Part shown: positions 43,059 to 64,000 of the stretch, piece by piece
Numbering within the stretch: the first letter of the stretch is position 1
Layout: each line of letters opens with the position of its first letter
The notes under the pieces: model-generated
Seen by the model: the letters and a program-made list of their open reading frames with translations, nothing else
What the model was told of the DNA's origin: nothing
The model's database searches: none
Translations under genes and position numbers: made by a program
Assembly: GCA_017654855.1 (NCBI GenBank)
Contig: CM030332.1
Span: 3,782,001 to 3,846,000 of the forward strand
DNA length: 64,000 nt
DNA from: Podospora anserina
Lineage: Eukaryota
Direction of reading: 5' to 3'

Positions 43059-46000
43059 CTAACCCCGCTGCCGCATCCCAAGTCCATCGACCCCAAGAAT
43101 AGGAATCTCAACCTCGGCCAACCCGAGCACGCCCTCGTCCCGGCGGCGGTCCACAAAGCTGTTGCATTCGTTGATGACGATCGCCCACTCGGCGAGGGCT
43201 CGGCCTGTGTACACAGCCCCTGAGGCATAAGGGCCGAAGGGCTTCTCGGCACGAATTGCTGGCGCGGGCGGCCGAGCCATCCTGATCATGTCAACCGAAG
43301 GACCACGTTCGTAGCCGTCAAAGCTCATGTGACGAAGAGGAGACGGCCTGTTGTATCTCTCATCCTCACTGTCCGAGGCAACCGCCGTGACGTTGATGCT
43401 GAGGGAGTACCGGCGTTTGGAGCTCTCCATCGACTTTCGTGGTGTATCCTCCACTATGGACAATGGCCGAGCATTGCGAGCCTCACTGATAAGACCGGTT
43501 TGCAAAGCACCGCTCACACGCCTAGTGTCGGGTGGCAGGCCGGGAGAAACGGGAGGCGGGCTGTCGCTGCGATAGACAAGGCTGCCGTTCTGAAAGTTAC
43601 CCACGTCGTTGATCGCCGCCGAGCGAGCGCTGACTCTCGCCTGAGCAGGCGCAGGGAGTCGAGGGCGGGTCAGAATCCGGTCTCTTGTAGGACCGAGTGG
43701 CATTGGCTGCCCCCCCGGTCCAGTTTGCCATGTGAGCGCAAAGCGAAAGACATAGGTGGTGGCCTCGTAAACGGGCGCAGAACCTGTAGTAGATATGGAG
43801 TCGGTAGACAAGGTGGCATGGTGGCCAGGTCTCTTTGGCGGCGGCGGAGGTCCCTGGCGAGGTCCCATCCGCGCAGCAGCTGTCTCGCGGCGAGCTTGTT
43901 CCAGCTCCTCGTCCCAAGCGCGCTTGGGATCCACGGCCCGGCCATTTTGCGAGCTGAATGGCAGTACCTTGCCCAACATTGACAGCCGCTTCTTGAAGGA
44001 TGACACATCCCCATCATCCTTGATGCCACCAACGGTATCTCCGCCGTTGATCCCGAACGTACCAGCATAATCCACGAGCTGGTCTGACCCTGGGAAGGAG
44101 CTGGAAAACGAGTCGAAGCCGAGCTTCATGGACGGCTGTGGCGGCTGCACCTCGGTTCGAATGATCAAGAACCGCTTGCCAGGCGTGGGATGAGCAGGGG
44201 CCGTAGAAGGCTGGACCTTGCCCCTCATGTCGGCATCAGCCTTGAGCCAAAGGTAATGAGCCCAAAGAGTCTTGAGCCGCTGCGACACAGTCAGGAATAT
44301 TTTGCTGCAGAGTCCCGTTAGTCACCTGTTGCAACGCTTGGATGGCTATCGTCTTACCTGTTGACCTCACTGGCGCTGCCCGAGTCCCTGCAGATCCGCC
44401 AGCAGAGCAGGCGCATGTAGTAAGCACGAACCATGGGGCACCAATGGTTGAAGAATTTGGCAAAGAACTCCTCCGTCAACAGCCACTCCGTGCACAAGGC
44501 CTCCTTGCGCGCCGGATCAGAAGTGATGGCGTCCCACACCGAGTAGAGGAAAGAGAGGACCCTAATCTCAGACATGGTGTTATTGGACTCGGCCATCATC
44601 TTGCCCACCTCGAGCCAGAAAGGCCAGTCAATGTAGTTGACAAAGGGGGCGGTGCTGCCAAATTCCAGGTACCGCGGCTGGCCAATTTCTTCGGCCGGGG
44701 ATCCTGCAGGGCTGCCGTTCACCGTGTTCTGGAATGTATCCAGCGTGACCAGCATCTCCTCCAGAAAATCGCACAGCATGAAACACGAAGCTTGGTCGAA
44801 TCGTGGTGTCCTCTTCGCTGCCGCCTTCGAGATGGCAGCAAAAGCCTCGGCAAAGGTATGCTTAATCTCGTGATTCACTCCAACAGAGCCTTCTGAGAGC
44901 ACATCCTTGAGCAGGACAATGAGCCGGTTTTCATCCATCCCTTTCAGAACATTGCTGGGCACAGAGATGCCGGTCAAAGTAGCATCCGCGCCGTGAATGC
45001 TGTCAGAAATCGGAGGGCCCAGCATGGCATCGATCGAGGCCTGTCGGTGAATGGTGCTATCCAACACCGACAAGATTTGAGCGTGGACCAGGACAAAGGC
45101 AGGTGACCGCGCCTTTTCGACCAGCGGGAGTCCCTCAAAAACAAACTGCTCAGAAAGCACGTGGAAGTACTTGCAAAAGATGAAAAACAGATCCGTCTCA
45201 CCACCACGCCATCTCGACACCCAAGGGCCGTGCCAGGGGATCTTGGCTGGCATCAGTGGCAGCTTAGCCGCAAGCCGCAGCTTGTCGCCCAGTGTCTTGA
45301 CAGACGACCATCCCAGCTTGTGCAGATGCTCGGGGTAGAGCGCGACAATATCCTCGCTCTCGCCCTTGCTCCGCCTCGGCAGACCAAACTCATCGGCGAC
45401 TCTTCGCAAAATGTCGGCATTCAAACCCCAAAGCCGCACCAGAACATCAGCGACACCGGGCACGAAGAAGAACGCATAAGCACACGCCTTGCCGCACCAG
45501 TTGACTAAGCTCAGAGGGGCGTGCCGGAGCGACATTTTCTCCACCACCAGCGCCATCTGTGTCGTCAAGTTGTTGACAAACATGGTCCGCACATTGTGCT
45601 CGGCCGGCTCGGTCAACAGCGAGTCCACATCGCTGCCAACGGTGGACGATGTGTTTGACCTCGCTCGGACCTTCTCTTCGGGAGACCGCTCAGCCAAAGG
45701 CTGAAACTGGCTGGTACACGTCCTCCACTCTGGCCGCATCATGATCATGGTGGCCGCCTCGAGCAGAGTTGGCCTGTCGACACCAGCAACCGGCTGCAAT
45801 ACTGGAAACTGGACGCCAAGCGCAGCGATGCCTGGAGCAAGCCCGTATCCTCCCGCCAACAGCCTCGAATGCCCGGCATCCAGCATCGACAAGAGGCCAT
45901 TCCACCACTTGTTCAAAACTGTGGCTCGCCGGTCAAAATCCTCGGAACTCAACACCGATCTGCTCGAATTGGAAGGGTGGTGCGAGGTACTTTTCAAGAA

Positions 46001-56386: not shown

Positions 56387-57621
56387 ATGCCCACCACAAA
56401 CCCTAACCCAGCTCCCTATCAACCCCCCGACATCACCGAAAAGCCCACCACCACCACCACCACCATCATCAGCAATGACCCCGAGAAGCAAACCCTTCCT
56501 CCCCCCCTCCCACCATGCGCCGAACCAAAATCCACTTTCCAAGCCCTATCCTTCCTCGACCGCTTCCTAGCCCTCTGGATCTTCCTCGCCATGCTCATCG
56601 GCGTCCTCCTCGGTAACTTTGTCCCCAACACCGGCCCCGCCCTCCATCGCGGCACCTTTTTCGACGTTTCCGTCCCAATAGCAGTTGGACTCCTGGTAAT
56701 GATGTACCCCATCCTCTGCAAAGTCAAGTACGAGTCCCTGCACAAAGTCTTTCAAGAAAGACAAGTCTGGGTGCAACTTGCCTTCAGCATTGTGGTGAAC
56801 TGGGTGGTAGCACCGCTGTTCATGCTCGCCTTGTCGTGGGCGTTCTTGCCGGATGAGGAAGGGTTAAGGCAGGGGTTGATTCTGGTTGGTGTGGCGAGGT
56901 GTATTGCTATGGTTTTGATCTGGAATAATCTTGTAATTATCCCCTCCCGTCTGAGATCCCACACAGTGATGCTGACGATAAACAGGCCAACGGCAGCAAC
57001 GACTACTGCGCCATCCTCGTGGCGGTCAACTCCCTCCTTCAAATCGTCCTTTTTGCACCGCTGTCGTTGTTGTTCATACGAGTCTTTGACCCCAACAGCA
57101 CCACCGCCATCAGCATCTCCTACTCCACCGTCGCGACCTCTGTCGGCATCTTCCTCGGCATCCCCCTCGCTGCCGCGATCATGACCCGCTTTGCCCTCCT
57201 CTTTCTCACCTCCCCGGACTTTTACAACAAGAAGTTTATTCCAGTCATCTCCCCCCTCTCCCTCATCGGCTTGTTGTACACCATCCTCGTGCTCTTCGCG
57301 TCTCAGGGAAAGCAGGTGGTCCACCAGATTGTCTCCGTCGTGAGGGTGTCCGCGCCGTTGATTGTTTATTTCACCGTTATCTTCTTTGCTACCTTGTTCG
57401 CGTGCAGGAGGTTGGGGTATAGATACGAGTTTGGTGTTACCCAGAGTTTTACCGCGGCGAGCAACAACTTTGAGCTGGCGATTGCCGTTGCGGTGGCGGC
57501 GTTTGGGGCGGAGAGTGATCAGGCTCTTGCGGCGACGGTTGGGCCGTTGATTGAGGTGCCGGTTTTGTTGGGGTTGGTTTATGGGGTTAGGTGGGTGGTT
57601 AAGAGACGGGGGTGGGAGTGA
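56387..57621 (+). CDS. acr3: Arsenite/antimonite efflux transporter Acr3 (~393 aa); intron 56933-56985
   Basis: LSFLDRFLALWI, GLLVMMYPILCKV, NWVVAP, GVARCIAMVLIWN, AVNSLLQI, SNNFELAIAVAV, GPLIEVPVLL. Confidence 0.96.
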
Positions 57622-58791
57622 TCATCTGTGGTGGTGGATGGTCTGGAGAAGTGAGAGGTTCGGTTGGTGTTGTTGTTGTTGTTGTTGTTTGATGGAGTAA
57701 TATTTGTGAGAAGAAGAGATGTATAAAGGTTATAACCAAGAGATAGATACCGTAATCAACAGGGCAAGAGAATGATGATGTCAAGTCGCAAAAAACTTGT
57801 TGAAATTATCTTGACTGAGTGACGTTCAGGCTGGCCGAATGACTGTGCGAGGTACCGACGACGATCATAACATGAATATCCCAGTCATGAAAACAACGGG
57901 ATCACAGGATTTACCCCTAGCTAGAATAAAACCCCATAAAACCCCATCTACTACTACTTTAACATCTCTCCCTCCTAACCGCACTGCTACCCATCATCTC
58001 CACCGACTACTGCATTGCTCCTTCCCTACAGGTGACGGGAACGACCACCCACCACGTTGCTTCTTCCCTACAAGTGCACCATGATTTATGTATTAGGTCC
58101 CTTTTACTCCTTCCAACAGCAGCTCCAACATCTTACCAGGGCGCCCTTGTGGTATGTCTTTGTAGAATCGACTTACTAACCAGCCTTTCCACCCCCTTCC
58201 CAACAACAAGAGCAACTTGCCTGGTAGTCAATAGTATGACAATCCAACCACAGCAGGAGAGCTATAGCGAATATGATCAAAGCTGTTGTGTCTAGAATGT
58301 TATGAGCTCGAATCTCACCACAGCAGTTCTCATTGTTTGCACCCAGGGGGTTGTTGTTTTTTCGCCAACTTTTGCTAACCAAGGCCTGCGAAAACCACAA
58401 GTTTCGGTCACAAACAAAACAATCAAATCAAGTCAACTAAGAATAAGTATTCCCATTCAGCTAAAAACCAGAAGCCATCGTCAAGAGCAACCATCATCTT
58501 TCAAGGTCAACAGCCGCCTCAACCTGATAACTTCCATCCGCTATCCCTCCACCATCATGCCAACTCCTCAAAAAAAGAGCAGCTAAAAAAAGGTGAGCAG
58601 TCATTGTTACCCAACAAGCCCAAAAAAGAAGATTAAGTTTCATAAGCCATTACATGATCCCCCCCCCTCTCCACCCAAAAAAAAAAGACATTAATCTTCA
58701 GTACTAATCCCTCACACGTTTTCGCACACTTCCTCAAATTTTGGTCATTAAAATCTTCCCAGGGAGTCCATCTGAGGGTTTCCCGTCATCA

Positions 58792-59923
58792 TCAAAACTG
58801 CACCGGAATGATGCTGTTCAAACCAGGGAGGACACTTCCGACAGTGCCGAGGATGCTCTGGAGCAGACCGCTGATGGGGCTGTTGAAGATGAGACCGCCG
58901 ACGGTCCCGCCGATCCCGGTGCCGCCAATCACCTCGTTGAGGAGACCGCCGCCACCAATGAACCCGCCGAGACCGCCGCCGCCGACCGGGCCACTAGACA
59001 GAAGACTGGTGAGGAGGTCAGTGACCAGCTTCAGGATGCCAGAGACGATTCCAATGGGGCCGCCGGGCCCACCACCGAGGACTCCGGTGGTGGCTTGACC
59101 GACGAAGGGGAGACCATTCAAACCGGAAACACCGGGGAGGACGAGACGAGAAACACCGACCTTGAGATCCGCGTCGAGCTGCTCGAGGGGGGCGCGGACG
59201 GCCTCGGCCTTCTCCTCGGGCGTCTTGTCGGCAGCCTCAGCCATGGCGTGCTCTGGAAGAATCGGGAGGTTAGTCATGTTGCAGACAGTACAAAGAGAAA
59301 GAAGGGAGCTGCTTACTGATCTTCTCGAGGTTGTCCTGGAAGTCGGTCAACAGTTGGGTGAGAGCCTCCTGGTTGATCTGGCTGTTGAGGGCAGCGTAGT
59401 AGTTGGCCACGCTCTGGGCATAGGCGGCGCTGCGCTTTTGGATGGCAGCGGCGGCGTCCTGGGAAGTAGCCTGGACAGTGGGGAAAGAAGCCCCAGCGGG
59501 AGCGGGGGTGGAAGAGAGAGGGAGGGGGAGGGGGAGAGCGGCACCGCCGCCACCACCACCGACGAGACCGCCGACGATGGGGACACCGCCGGCACCACCA
59601 CCGCCGCCGCCGAGGCCGCCGAGAAGACCGCCAACAAGGGGAAGACCCTGGAGGAGGGGTCTGAGAATGGGGAGACCACCGAGGAGAGGACCAAGGATGG
59701 GAAGACCACCACCGCCGCCACCGCCGGTAAGACCACCGAGAAGGCCGCTAAGGAGGGGTCCGAGGATCGGGATGCCGTCAAGGAGCTGGGCCTCGAGGGC
59801 GGCCTTGATCTGAGCCAACTGCTGAGCCTGCTGCATCTGCTGGGCCTGCTGGGCCTGCTCCTCTGGAACAGGGACAGCGATGGCAGTGCCAGCGAGGACG
59901 AGGAGAGGGAGAGTGGCCTTCAT
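58792..59923 (-). CDS. Secreted Gly/Leu-rich repeat protein (~355 aa), function unknown; intron 59316-59253
   Basis: Signal peptide MKATLPLLVLAGTAIA-VP; repeated (G)LPILGPLL/GLPLVGGLL units separated by poly-Gly; intron GTAAGC...CTAAC...CAG joins ORFs 59270-60121 and 58792-59277 in frame; strong C-ending codon bias. Confidence 0.85.
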
Positions 59924-60673
59924 GATGAAAGATGAAGTTGCTTCTGTGTGGTCGCGGTCTGAAAGAGACGGCCTGGAGTTGGAAGTGAGTGGTGTGTTTG
60001 TGTGTGAAGGGCCGGATGGTGAGGAACAAAAGAGGTTTCGGGATCGTTCAGGTCCTGCCGTACTTATACAAAAATCGAGAGTGGTTCTCGGTCCGCAGAA
60101 ACCACCTCCATCATTGCACAATCTGCTGTGATCGGTCCAACTCTCGGCGCGGTCTAGAGTGAGATGGTATGCTCGTTGTTGAAGATGTGCTGCAGGAACG
60201 CGGGAATCAGGGGCTGTCTCAAACTTCCTTGGTCAAAAAGGGGGGCCTGGAATGCTGACGGGATCGTGACCCCAGAGTCAACACAACAAAAAGTAGGGTC
60301 ATACCGTGCCCAACCTTCTTCGCGGCACTCTCCGCGGATATCTGAAGAAAATATCATCAACTGTTGAAACCTAAAGCCGTTCAAGGGTTCGGTTTGGGTG
60401 AGATGGGGGGCGGGAACAGTTCCAGGTGACCAGGTTGGAAGAATGCGGGTATTGCGGGATTCGTCCCGTTCCGAGATGATCAGTCGGGTCAAAGATGGCA
60501 AGATCAACTCTGGACCGCCGTGGAAGAGGAAGGTGTGCCTGGTCTGTCGTGCTGTACTTGATCTTGCACCTGTCTCTGTGAGGAGTTGGATTTTCCTCCA
60601 ACAACCAACTCATCCTCGCCCTCACCTCAAGATCACCGCCCACCGGTCTTCAACATACCTCGATCAACGAGCC

Positions 60674-61519
60674 ATGACAGTCGAGCCAGAAGCTCCGTCA
60701 ACGACAGACGCAATAGACTCGAGGCGATGGAGGAACATGCCCGGATCGTACCCATCACCGACTCAATCGCGGCCAGACTCTCCCATGCCAACGTCCAACA
60801 CCCCGGCCAGCGATAGCCCCTAGAAAGGTACTCCCGATGCCACAACCGACAGCAGACAATCCATCACCTTCTCGCCCCTCTCCCAAAATCCCAGCAGTTC
60901 GCCGGCCTCGATTGCCTACTTCTCACGAGCTCGCAGTGCTGCCTCGTCCCATGCCCAACTCGGGGAACCTTCAATAGCATCCAGCTCATGCTCTGCTGCC
61001 TTTCGGCCAGCCCTCTCATGGACCACACATCAGGGCACCCCGTTCAGTTTCTTCAGCGCTACCAAGTCACCAGACCATTTCATTGTCGACTTTTCGGACC
61101 GAGCCCTCTCCTCGTTGGCAACCCCTTCGCCACCTGCACGGTCAACCGCCCCCCCGTCAGGGACAGAAAAGACTACGCCATCACCACCACCACCACCCAA
61201 GCATTCCATCAAGGGTAGGGCGAAGCGGCGGAAGAGCAGGGCCCTCAGTTTCTTGGACCCAGACCTGAGATTTGCGCTTTGTCTCATCTGTGTATGGGCC
61301 TGTCTCTTCTTTTCGTTTTGCAGTCTCTTCTTGGTTGGATCTTGCTGGGGATGGTGGGGAGGTCGCAAGAACAACCCCTGGTCACCCGATCGTTCATGTA
61401 TCAAGCACAAATCTCTCATGAAGCAATACGAGGACCAACGCGAGCTGAGGCAGTACGGTGTACGACAGCCAGTCATACACGCAAATGGCCATGGCGGACC
61501 TTCTGGGCCTCGTGGCTGA
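60674..61519 (+). other. 281-codon reading frame interrupted by one in-frame TAG (60821-60823): candidate A-to-I-corrected gene or pseudogene; Ser/Pro-rich with one C-terminal transmembrane segment
   Basis: ORF-track entries 60398-60823 and 61115-61519 share a frame, and manual translation shows 60824-61114 has no stop. Contains MPGSYPSP, basic GRAKRRKSR and hydrophobic FALCLICVWACLFFSFCSLFLVG. Confidence 0.5.
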
Positions 61520-61604
61520 TGGGATGGAGAACATGTGCCTTGAAAGCAGCGCTAGAAAAGCATACATCAGTAGTAAGATTGATAGTACGTACGAGAGCTT
61601 GACT

Positions 61605-62421
61605 CTACTCGGATTGCTCATCTTTCAGTGCCATGGCAATACAACTAAACCTCAAGTCTTGCCCACCAGACTCGTGTTCCAACTTGATTATCCTACCCAG
61701 ACCTAACTCCAACGCCTTGGGGCTTAGGACGTCTTCGTCATCCCCTAGCTCACCCCTGTCCAACGGACCCTCTCTGCTCCCTTCCAACTCCCAGAGCCGT
61801 CCGTTTGCTTTGACGTAACCGACGAAATGTTGGCCTAGCCCTACGGACCTGTCTCTTGGCTCGGCGGTATCGCCCATTGCCGCTACGGATTGGTGGGCCT
61901 CTTCAAATGCCTTGTTGTCGTACAATAATTCTGCACGTTCTTCTCTTGGCAACGGGGCTGCGTCCTTGCGAATTTGATCGAGGGTGCTGCCGGGATGGAT
62001 GAGGGAGGCGGCGGGGCCGTTGATAGAGCAGTGGAGGAGGGCGTAGGAGCCGCAGGCGTCGCCGATGGTTTGTTGGAACCATATTATGGGGGCTGAGGAG
62101 GAGGGGTTGCTGTTGCCGTGGTAGTAGGTTTTGGGGTCGCCGAGACGGGCGTCTTCGGATTGGCGGTCGAGGGCCCAGGAGGGGGTGAGGGGAATGATGG
62201 CTATGAGGGCGAGGCAGGGGCGGGGGATGTGGGCGAGGGCTGGGGGGGAGAAGGAGTAGATGTCGTGGAAGGTGATGGAAGGGGGGAGGCCGAGGGTGTG
62301 AGCGAGGGTGGTGAAGACTTCGGGGTGGTTTTCTGGAAGAGGTTAGTGATGAATGTTCGGGGAATAGGGAGAATATGAGGTGTGTACCGAGCATGGTGAA
62401 GTATTTCTTCTCGGTGGCCAT
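61605..62421 (-). CDS. Ubiquitin C-terminal hydrolase, peptidase C12 family (UCH-L3/Yuh1-like), ~253 aa; intron 62387-62333
   Basis: Spliced product MATEKKYFTMLENHPEVF...FHDIYS...WFQQTIGDACGSYALLH...FEEAH...HFVGYVK..GRLWELEGSREGP...LRFSCIAM. Confidence 0.92.
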
Positions 62422-64000
62422 TTTTGCTGGTTCATTCGGTTCCACTATGAAGTCTTCAATTGCACACTTATGAAACACGCTGAGGTTGCAGATTTGGTAG
62501 AAAACGAGCGATGAATTAATTGACTGCTGTTACAAGAAGTAGGGCAGGAGCGGTGTGAGCACGTCAGTCAAGACAGGAAGGAGTACGCAGGCGTCGCTGC
62601 CTGGGAAGCTCTGAAGCTCGCCCACCTATCAGTCCACCCGGCCAGCTCTCCCCCGCAGCTTCATTGCAATTTCCCTTCTCGTATAGGACTCTTCTGCCTT
62701 GTCATTAGTTTGCTTCTTGTGTGCTTGGCATCCTTTCAAATCTGGCGGACATTTATCACGGCCATAGGTTCTAGGATATGGGGAATGGAGGCATGGAAAA
62801 TGGAAAAGTGACTACACCCTCATGTTTGATGTTGACAAGATATCTCACATGGAGCTTGAGGGCCAAATCAAGTTTAGCGCACGATCTCTGGGCAAGCTCG
62901 GCAAGCTCCACCCCCGCATTTTCGGTGGACCCTGGACCCTGGCCATTTGCCCCACATCAACGTCGATCAACGACGACGACAACGATCCATATGACATCCC
63001 AAACATCCCATCAAGAGACGATGAAGGTCACGATAAGTGATATGATGTAGGCTTTAGCAGTCTCAAGTCGCCCATGTCGACGTACTGTTGACAAGCTAGA
63101 GCAGCCTTTTCGTCATTGACGGTTGAGGCTGGATGAAATCTAACGATTCAATGTAGCTCAGTTACTTGGCACATTCTGTCGCCTCAGGTGCACGATTCGG
63201 CATGTCCGAGATCTCAGTCCAACTCGGCCTCCAGATCGCACCTCCCATGATCGTGCTTTGTAAGGCGCATCCAGCACGGCCATATTTATCTGATGGAAAC
63301 ACGCCGCACAGCACCTACCGGCGCCGAAGACAAAGAAACTGCTGACCGGTGGTTGGTTATCCATCCATTCGCAATCCGTGGTCCTCAATTCAAGCCCCAG
63401 AGCTTTGCTTTAGGTAACCAAGTTGGAAACAGGGCGGGGTCAGACCTTCCTATGCATGTACACAACCGTTTCCATGTACATGCATCAAAGCCCTGCTTAT
63501 CACCACCACCCAAGGTAACACTTGACAAACGATGACATGACCTCCCGGACCCTGGGAAGCTCCGTTCTACCTCTCCCAGTTCCCACACTAGTAGGCCACT
63601 GCCCCGGACAATTATTTGAAAACAAAAAAAGAACGTTGCTGCTGGCTTGCATGACACCCACCCCTTCAGGGTCCAGAAAAGCGTCAAGTCCATTGATGAG
63701 ATCATCATGATTAGCTCACCCCCGGTCCCAATCGCAAGGTTCCAGCCCATGATCCATGATCTGAGGTAGGTAGGTAGCTTAGCTTTCCACCTCCGCTGAG
63801 AGACCGTCAGGAGTGGGCAGATGATAATGCAGTCGCACGCACCCCTTCTTTCTTCTTAAACCCCGCTCCTGCCCACAAATCTTTCCAAACCTTTCTTCTG
63901 TTCCCCTCCAAGCTCAACTCGAATACAAACACATCGTGAACACAAACCAGGGCTTTTCAACGGAGAGCTCTCTCAGGATCCACCTTTGTCGATAGTGTAA

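Follow-up and report, generated by a model that had tools for sequence, protein, structure and literature searches.

The locus analyzed here raises the question of whether a plus-strand reading frame interrupted by a single genomic TAG, located within a 64,000-nucleotide stretch of Podospora anserina DNA (the window, to which all positions refer), belongs to a protein-coding gene whose stop codon is corrected in the mRNA. The frame opens with the ATG at 60674, runs for 49 codons to a TAG at 60821–60823 (context CCC TAG AAA) and then stays open for another 231 codons up to the TGA at 61517–61519; the next in-frame ATG downstream of the premature TAG is found at 61418. These coordinates were exactly those given in a preliminary description of the window, in which a hidden gene dependent on A-to-I editing of the UAG had been proposed. 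The candidate gene is single-copy in the 35.96-Mb genome, and one reading frame split by an in-frame genomic TAG is the arrangement expected of genes of the premature-stop-correction (PSC) type. On the sequence evidence presented below, we consider it very likely that the frame belongs to a genuine but unannotated PSC-type gene of Podosporaceae, present in one copy and gated by editing, with the contigs that read Trp at this codon presumably derived from RNA and the editing presumably taking place in the sexual stage.

Taken by itself, the frame pattern is only modestly unusual and constitutes weak evidence. When the 1.67-kb interval was resampled 3000 times at matched composition, a stop-free run of at least 231 codons arose in 127 cases (a chance of approximately 4%), and the arrangement of an ATG-initiated ORF, a stop and at least 200 further codons without an early Met was observed three times in the 64-kb window. 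The other two cases, at 43221 (plus strand, TGA) and 3002 (minus strand, TAA), are both overlapped by longer opposite-strand ORFs and are probably antisense shadows. The case for more than chance rests on a form with Trp at the TAG in public data and on a conserved ortholog.

The bases around A60822 had also been put forward in the preliminary description in favor of editing. The favored bases were indeed present (U at −1, G at +1 and A at +3), but their weight had been overrated: U at −1 and G at +1 are found in any UAG, so that only the A at +3 is informative and the discriminating power of the context is low. Further, a small RNA hairpin was predicted at 60819–60828 (+), in which the A at 60822 would be the first base of a 4-nt loop (unpaired probability of 1.0 with flanks of 15–30 nt and of 0.74 with 50 nt). 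An A in a hairpin loop is described as a favored editing site in F. graminearum in the accessible text of PMC9600606; the predicted loop position is common to 281 of the 903 TAG triplets in the window (31%) and is therefore weak evidence as well.

The coding potential of the frame was assessed with a Markov model for which 13 long ORFs of the window served as training set. Before as well as after the stop, the candidate frame outscored the other five, with respective scores of +4.0 and +1.7 at order 3 and of +4.9 and −1.5 at order 4; the non-coding control of this model lay within the training set and was consequently biased. In the 5′ part of the gene (60674–60823, +), which comprises the 49 codons and the premature TAG, ATG 60674 is the likely start, with 60737 and 60785 as alternatives. 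An in-frame extension of 77 codons from ATG 60443 (60443–60673, +) is probably a 5′ leader, since two related proteins (P0131 and P0133, see below) end within it at codon 60587, although a coding role is possible given that the model still ranks the frame best there. This extension, together with an antisense minus-strand transcript over the gene, had been missed in the preliminary description. No consensus intron signals (donor, branch site) were present around the premature TAG. A minus-strand ORF of 173 codons at 61030–61551 scored as non-coding, had no conserved match and was rejected.

A form with Trp at the premature TAG was recovered from public contigs. A short-protein search returned one match among 92 candidates, namely P0130, a 141-aa protein that ends exactly at the premature TAG and whose cluster holds four Logan-derived members (P0130, P0131, P0132 and P0133). 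P0132, with 358 aa, runs from ATG 60443 to the TGA and is identical to the frame of the window at 357 of 358 residues. The sole difference is a W at the premature TAG, so that it reads DSP-W-KG, the very product that had been anticipated for an A>G change at this site. Because TGG is the only codon for Trp, the change in P0132 is exactly A60822G. P0132 was present on three contigs, the longest of 3,344 nt, and the stop-ended P0130 on 10, of which the longest measured 13,634 nt; P0131 (nine contigs, up to 13,633 nt) and P0133 (one contig of 11,903 nt) both end after 48 aa at codon 60587. This codon (60587–60589) is TGG in the window, and P0132 is likewise open there; loss of one G at 60587 would create a TGA and may account for the one-base length difference. 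Position 60587 represents an indel/stop polymorphism in the upstream frame, and a second editable TAG there is also conceivable.

The occurrence of the stop form on long contigs and of the W form on short ones fits assemblies of DNA and of transcripts, respectively, and is strongly suggestive of an RNA origin of the W contigs. Exact look-ups of nine other ORF variants in the protein collection retrieved none of them, and no homologs of the W-read protein were found among 1251 candidates of 154–492 aa or among 1.84 billion cluster representatives. P0132 was missed in the latter search because its cluster is represented by the 141-aa form.

Conservation of the frame downstream of the TAG, another expectation of the preliminary description, was observed in a second genus. 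A metagenome scan was anchored on the convergent neighboring gene, which encodes a ubiquitin C-terminal hydrolase (UCH; Pa_1_10850 ortholog; 61605–62421, −, with an intron at 62333–62387), and covered 80 loci, many of them distant or short. The candidate motif was detected in one of the 80 (L002), in which the UCH sequence matches a protein labelled Cladorrhinum samala at 100% identity; the UCH proteins of the two genera are 68% identical. The L002 gene is convergent with UCH as in the window and matches residues 217–266 of the candidate (tblastn E-value of 9e-6 unfiltered and of 0.003 with SEG), and a reciprocal search against the genome of the window gave the candidate locus as sole match (E-value of 3e-4). 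It contains a 79-nt intron with donor, branch site and acceptor on the candidate's strand. The exons match the candidate in register: three segments aligned without gaps share 17 identical codons out of 50, and identity over the second exon is 41%. The sequence 3′ of the stop is conserved as protein in a relative, as expected of a PSC gene, on the basis of this single ortholog; the L002 contig ends before the 5′ half of the gene, and the comparison covers the post-stop part only. Differences by codon position (26/19/29) were saturated and yielded no dN/dS estimate.

The L002 gene also carries an in-frame TAG of its own (TTT TAG AAG), which aligns with the AAA codon for Lys246 of the candidate (61409–61411, +) and is followed by 75 open codons (chance of about 0.015), with 4 of 16 residues identical in register after the TAG (shuffle p of 4.5e-4). 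This TAG lies outside a predicted loop and rests on one contig; alternatively, translation may truly end there, the similarity beyond it being residual. At four Chaetomiaceae-like loci (L003, L004, L009 and L010), UCH lies 0.8–1.4 kb from the upstream gene and the candidate is absent; the gene therefore looks restricted to Podosporaceae or has moved. Matches to the Ser/Pro-rich part obtained by tblastn (L014, L010 and others) were of low complexity, vanished with SEG and were discarded, and none of the 142 pattern matches from a metagenome scan with the downstream ORF was confirmed.

Translation of the unedited mRNA would end after 49 aa, short of any membrane segment. The edited product would comprise 281 aa and would owe 232 of these, among them the sole membrane segment, to editing. 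The first 190 residues consist of Ser, Pro and Thr to 46% and are predicted to be disordered. The 3′ part of the gene (60824–61519, +; 231 codons), conserved in L002, encodes a Ser/Pro/Thr-rich disordered region, a basic cluster, one transmembrane helix and a conserved tail. The basic cluster and the Cys-rich helix named in the preliminary description were both recovered. The former was located at residues 176–189 (61199–61240, +), with nine Lys or Arg in the 25 residues preceding the helix, and might be a positive-inside signal or a nuclear localization signal. The latter was predicted at residues 200–222 (61271–61339, +) by hydropathy, with a best 19-residue Kyte–Doolittle mean of 2.56, and by single-sequence AlphaFold modeling, in which a helix spanned residues 196–231 (block pLDDT of 82–96, overall mean of 51). 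The helix is more likely to be a signal anchor with N-in, C-out topology, because no signal peptide is evident from the sequence and the basic residues flanking the helix number nine versus five. The post-membrane motif G-x-C-x-G-x-W-G-G...N-P-W-x-P-x-R-x-C, followed by a helix ending in R-x-Y-G (residues 222–262; 61337–61459, +), is 41% identical to the L002 ortholog. A Pfam search of the candidate protein gave no match, and a PsiB match for L002 (E-value of 0.11) was rejected.

With regard to the editing machinery, three DUF726 genes were found in the genome. One of them (L084; G000:C4:2292641-2293714) has MV in the column where its paralogs (L085, L086/L087) have KN and DR, and the MV substitution has been reported to enable mRNA editing by Ame1 (bioRxiv 2023.10.18.562923, accessible text). 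L084 is likely the Ame1 ortholog by sequence; its MV-to-serine spacing is 30 versus 31 in the numbering of that preprint. Judged on its DUF726 genes, the host carries the Ame1-type MV gene expected for PSC. Podospora ADAT genes have been described as developmentally regulated, with no edited sites given in the accessible text (bioRxiv 2024.12.09.627484), and editing is confirmed for Neurospora alone in that of PMC8092558; PMC6660238 contained no RNA-editing passage. Searches for Podospora editing and for the locus tags, mostly among openly available papers, yielded no description of the gene or of the proposed site.

RNA contigs from four of 24 listed runs (X10, X11, X13 and X14) were examined. 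All four showed A only at 60822, and none contained a splice joint across the premature TAG, with the neighboring genes spliced in every one. Use of the TAG as a splice acceptor with a weak donor at 60748, named in the preliminary description as an outcome that would speak against editing, was not observed in any of them. The A at 60822 speaks against editing within the limits of these contigs, which keep the majority allele only and carry neither strand nor stage; gaps in RNA cover at the locus were not counted as evidence. Moreover, the A-only cover at 60822 may stem from an antisense leader. The published annotation presents the region as 5′ UTR of the minus-strand gene Pa_1_10840 (59924–61488, −; Table S1 of PMC9801653), a stretch antisense to most of the candidate gene, if not to all of it. 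RNA of such a minus-strand leader could not reveal an edit at A60822.

The accessible text of this re-annotation, based on a stranded dataset, gives 5′ UTRs of 1,200 and 1,565 nt for Pa_1_10840 (PMC9801653), whose starts were mapped near 61123 and 61488 by the distance from the ATG to the UCH stop (within 2 bp). The longer leader (start at about 61488) abuts the UCH 3′ end, and the leader would hold 18–25 upstream ATGs. A GT-AG intron with donor, branch site and acceptor was spliced at 60190–60304 (−) in the long 5′ leader, with a joint in run X14, and indicates that the minus-strand transcript extends beyond 60305 towards the candidate gene. The long leader may arise by read-through from UCH, or it may belong to a long isoform that is rich in upstream ATGs and is not translated. 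The published end of the UCH transcript was 6 nt from the longest published start of Pa_1_10840 (59924–61494, −).

As for the neighborhood, the Pa_1_10840-type gene (58700–59923, −; ATG 59923) encodes a secreted Gly/Ala/Gln-rich protein with a signal-peptide-like start, Gln/Gly/Ala/Leu-rich repeats and no Pfam match; its introns at 59253–59316 and 59006–59160 were spliced in the RNA runs, and its homologs come next after UCH in L003, L004, L009 and L010. The last 240 residues of UCH are identical to PODANS_1_10850 and match those of sister species at 238–240 of 240 positions, which places the window in the P. anserina species complex. An ACR3/SBF-type transporter gene (PF01758; 56387–57621, +, with a 53-nt intron at 56933–56985) is syntenic with UCH in L004 and L010. 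A loose end in X10 at 61146 joins another contig (G000:C5:2823346-2823375) and was treated as a probable chimeric join. At 63620–64000, X10 contig depth was very high, with loose ends near 63913–63935, which probably marks the 5′ end of a strongly expressed, spliced gene that continues past the window.

In the model that we propose, the UAG at codon 50 would allow DNA and unedited mRNA to specify only the 49-aa fragment without a membrane anchor. During sexual development, the Tad2–Tad3–Ame1 deaminase would convert A60822 to inosine, and the resulting UIG (60821–60823, +) would be read as Trp50, as the W in P0132 suggests, giving a 281-aa single-pass membrane protein. This protein would expose a Ser/Pro/Thr-rich disordered N-terminus and the basic cluster to the cytosol; the helix would cross the membrane, leaving a short tail with conserved Cys, Trp and Gly on the opposite side. 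In vegetatively growing cells, the minus-strand leader over the gene may serve as a second lock. Judging from the PSC genes of F. graminearum, a tentative guess would be that the protein helps to form asci or ascospores as a scaffold or structural component anchored in the membrane. A further reading, to which we give somewhat less than even credence, is that editing control of this Podosporaceae-specific gene arose on two independent occasions, once in Podospora (codon 50) and once in the Cladorrhinum-like fungus (the codon aligned with Lys246); the gene would lie hidden in the published 5′ UTR of another gene and, in Podospora, would also be overlaid by antisense RNA in vegetative growth.

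Several other explanations of the locus were weighed. TGG to TAG is a single RIP-type transition, and genomic polymorphism, with TGG and an intact gene in some strains, a nonsense allele in the genome of the window and no editing, would fit both this and the A-only cover in the four examined runs. We nevertheless regard it as improbable. The W contigs measure up to 3.3 kb versus 11.9–13.6 kb for the three other cluster members, and if other haplotypes had a genomic TGG, the 281-aa protein should have been called; no such W form from long contigs or other haplotypes is on record. As P0132 shares the open codon at 60587, a genomic TGG would further need a reversion on the haplotype of the window. 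The gene is also single-copy with a TpA/ApT ratio of 0.41 and no RIP signature, and the L002 ortholog carries a TAG too. Removal of the TAG by an intron, or its use as acceptor, is barely credible: the weak GT at 60748 and the TAG could formally form an intron, but consensus donor and branch sites near the TAG and joints in the four examined runs were missing, and P0132 is colinear through the site, which refutes this explanation for the P0132 form. Nor does it seem at all probable that the plus strand holds no gene and that the frame is open by chance within the long minus-strand leader. The published 5′ UTR of 1.2–1.57 kb (PMC9801653, accessible text), the spliced minus-strand intron and the roughly 4% chance of an equally long open run speak for that account. 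However, it leaves unexplained the amino-acid conservation with L002 across an intron on the candidate's strand, it turns the W change into a U to C on minus-strand RNA, which is not an A-to-I product, and it requires a leader with 18–25 upstream ATGs; the L002 ortholog already largely refutes it.

The two remaining explanations accept editing and concern the full-length protein. Editing may be real but incidental, affecting a decaying or dispensable gene under a harm-permitting or error model (PMC13684035), with no selected role for the product. This is compatible with the editing claim and differs on function only; it is unlikely but has a real chance of being correct. Absence of the gene from the syntenic interval of the four Chaetomiaceae-like loci is in its favor, whereas the frame remains open for 231 codons after the stop and, although the gene evolves fast elsewhere, its downstream motif has been kept between genera that share 68% identity in UCH. 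Alternatively, the edited product could be a poison acting in meiotic drive or programmed death in asci and hence locked off vegetatively, like Neurospora rfk-1, which is toxic only after UAG-to-UIG editing according to the accessible text of bioRxiv 2020.12.30.424869. The apparent presence of two locks (stop and antisense) and the stops at different codons in the orthologs would suit such a poison, but the gene is single-copy with stable synteny between two genera, and no linked resistance gene or paralogs were seen, so that we hold this to be very improbable.

If the preferred reading of a PSC-type gene is right, a missed gene is added to a well-annotated model fungus, and A60822 offers a defined position at which restorative editing in Podospora can be tested at low cost. 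The mechanism is already known; the gene is unannotated and without a database homolog, and its support is unusually direct. If the TAG of L002 is edited as well, the gene pair would provide a natural test of the adaptive versus harm-permitting views (PMC10776026 vs. PMC13684035). Convergent gating at different codons, if true, would argue for selection that excludes the full-length protein from vegetative cells, and would amount to sequence-level evidence of restorative editing in Podospora. More generally, the case illustrates that annotated UTRs can conceal genes of the PSC class, which public contigs make it possible to recover.

KASH-like and inner-nuclear-membrane anchors are single-pass proteins with a long disordered N-terminus, a basic cluster and one C-proximal helix, and KASH domains have a short luminal tail ending in a proline-rich (PPP-type) motif. 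The candidate resembles them in architecture only: its tail is about 59 aa long (about 100 in L002) and has neither a terminal PPP-type motif nor a Pfam match. Stop-loss editing, as described for F. graminearum DBF2 (PMC13123824, accessible text) and criticized in PMC13684035, shares the change from UAG to UGG at a stop, and the late TAG of L002 could fit it; in the candidate, however, conservation is found beyond the stop, as is characteristic of a functional pseudogene and not of a C-terminal extension. Neurospora rfk-1, the Sk-2 killer, likewise has an early UAG that is edited for a longer active protein, but there editing lengthens the protein by 28 residues, from 102 to 130 aa, and the product acts as a poison in drive (bioRxiv 2020.12.30.424869, accessible text), whereas the candidate would gain 232 of 281 and shows no sign of drive.

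The comparison with the F. graminearum PSC pseudogenes was drawn from the accessible text of PMC10776026. The candidate differs in belonging to Sordariales and in having no sequence relation that was found (Table S1 of that paper contains no sequences, and its accessible tables gave no match for Podospora, Chaetomium or transmembrane), and the TAG at different codons in its orthologs departs from the repeated same-site origins reported there. In F. graminearum, PSC sites are often edited above 50%, as a majority-allele contig would require; this editing appears after day 5, and 18 of the genes act in germ tissue (PMC10776026). Further, about 71% of the PSC genes (50 of 71) are disordered or contain disordered regions. 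In line with PUK1/PSC03, AMD1/PSC04, FgAMA1/PSC33 and 43 hypothetical-protein PSCs of that set (PMC10776026), the candidate combines an in-frame genomic TAG and a probable full-length Trp product with a mostly disordered, lineage-restricted hypothetical protein in an Ame1-type host.
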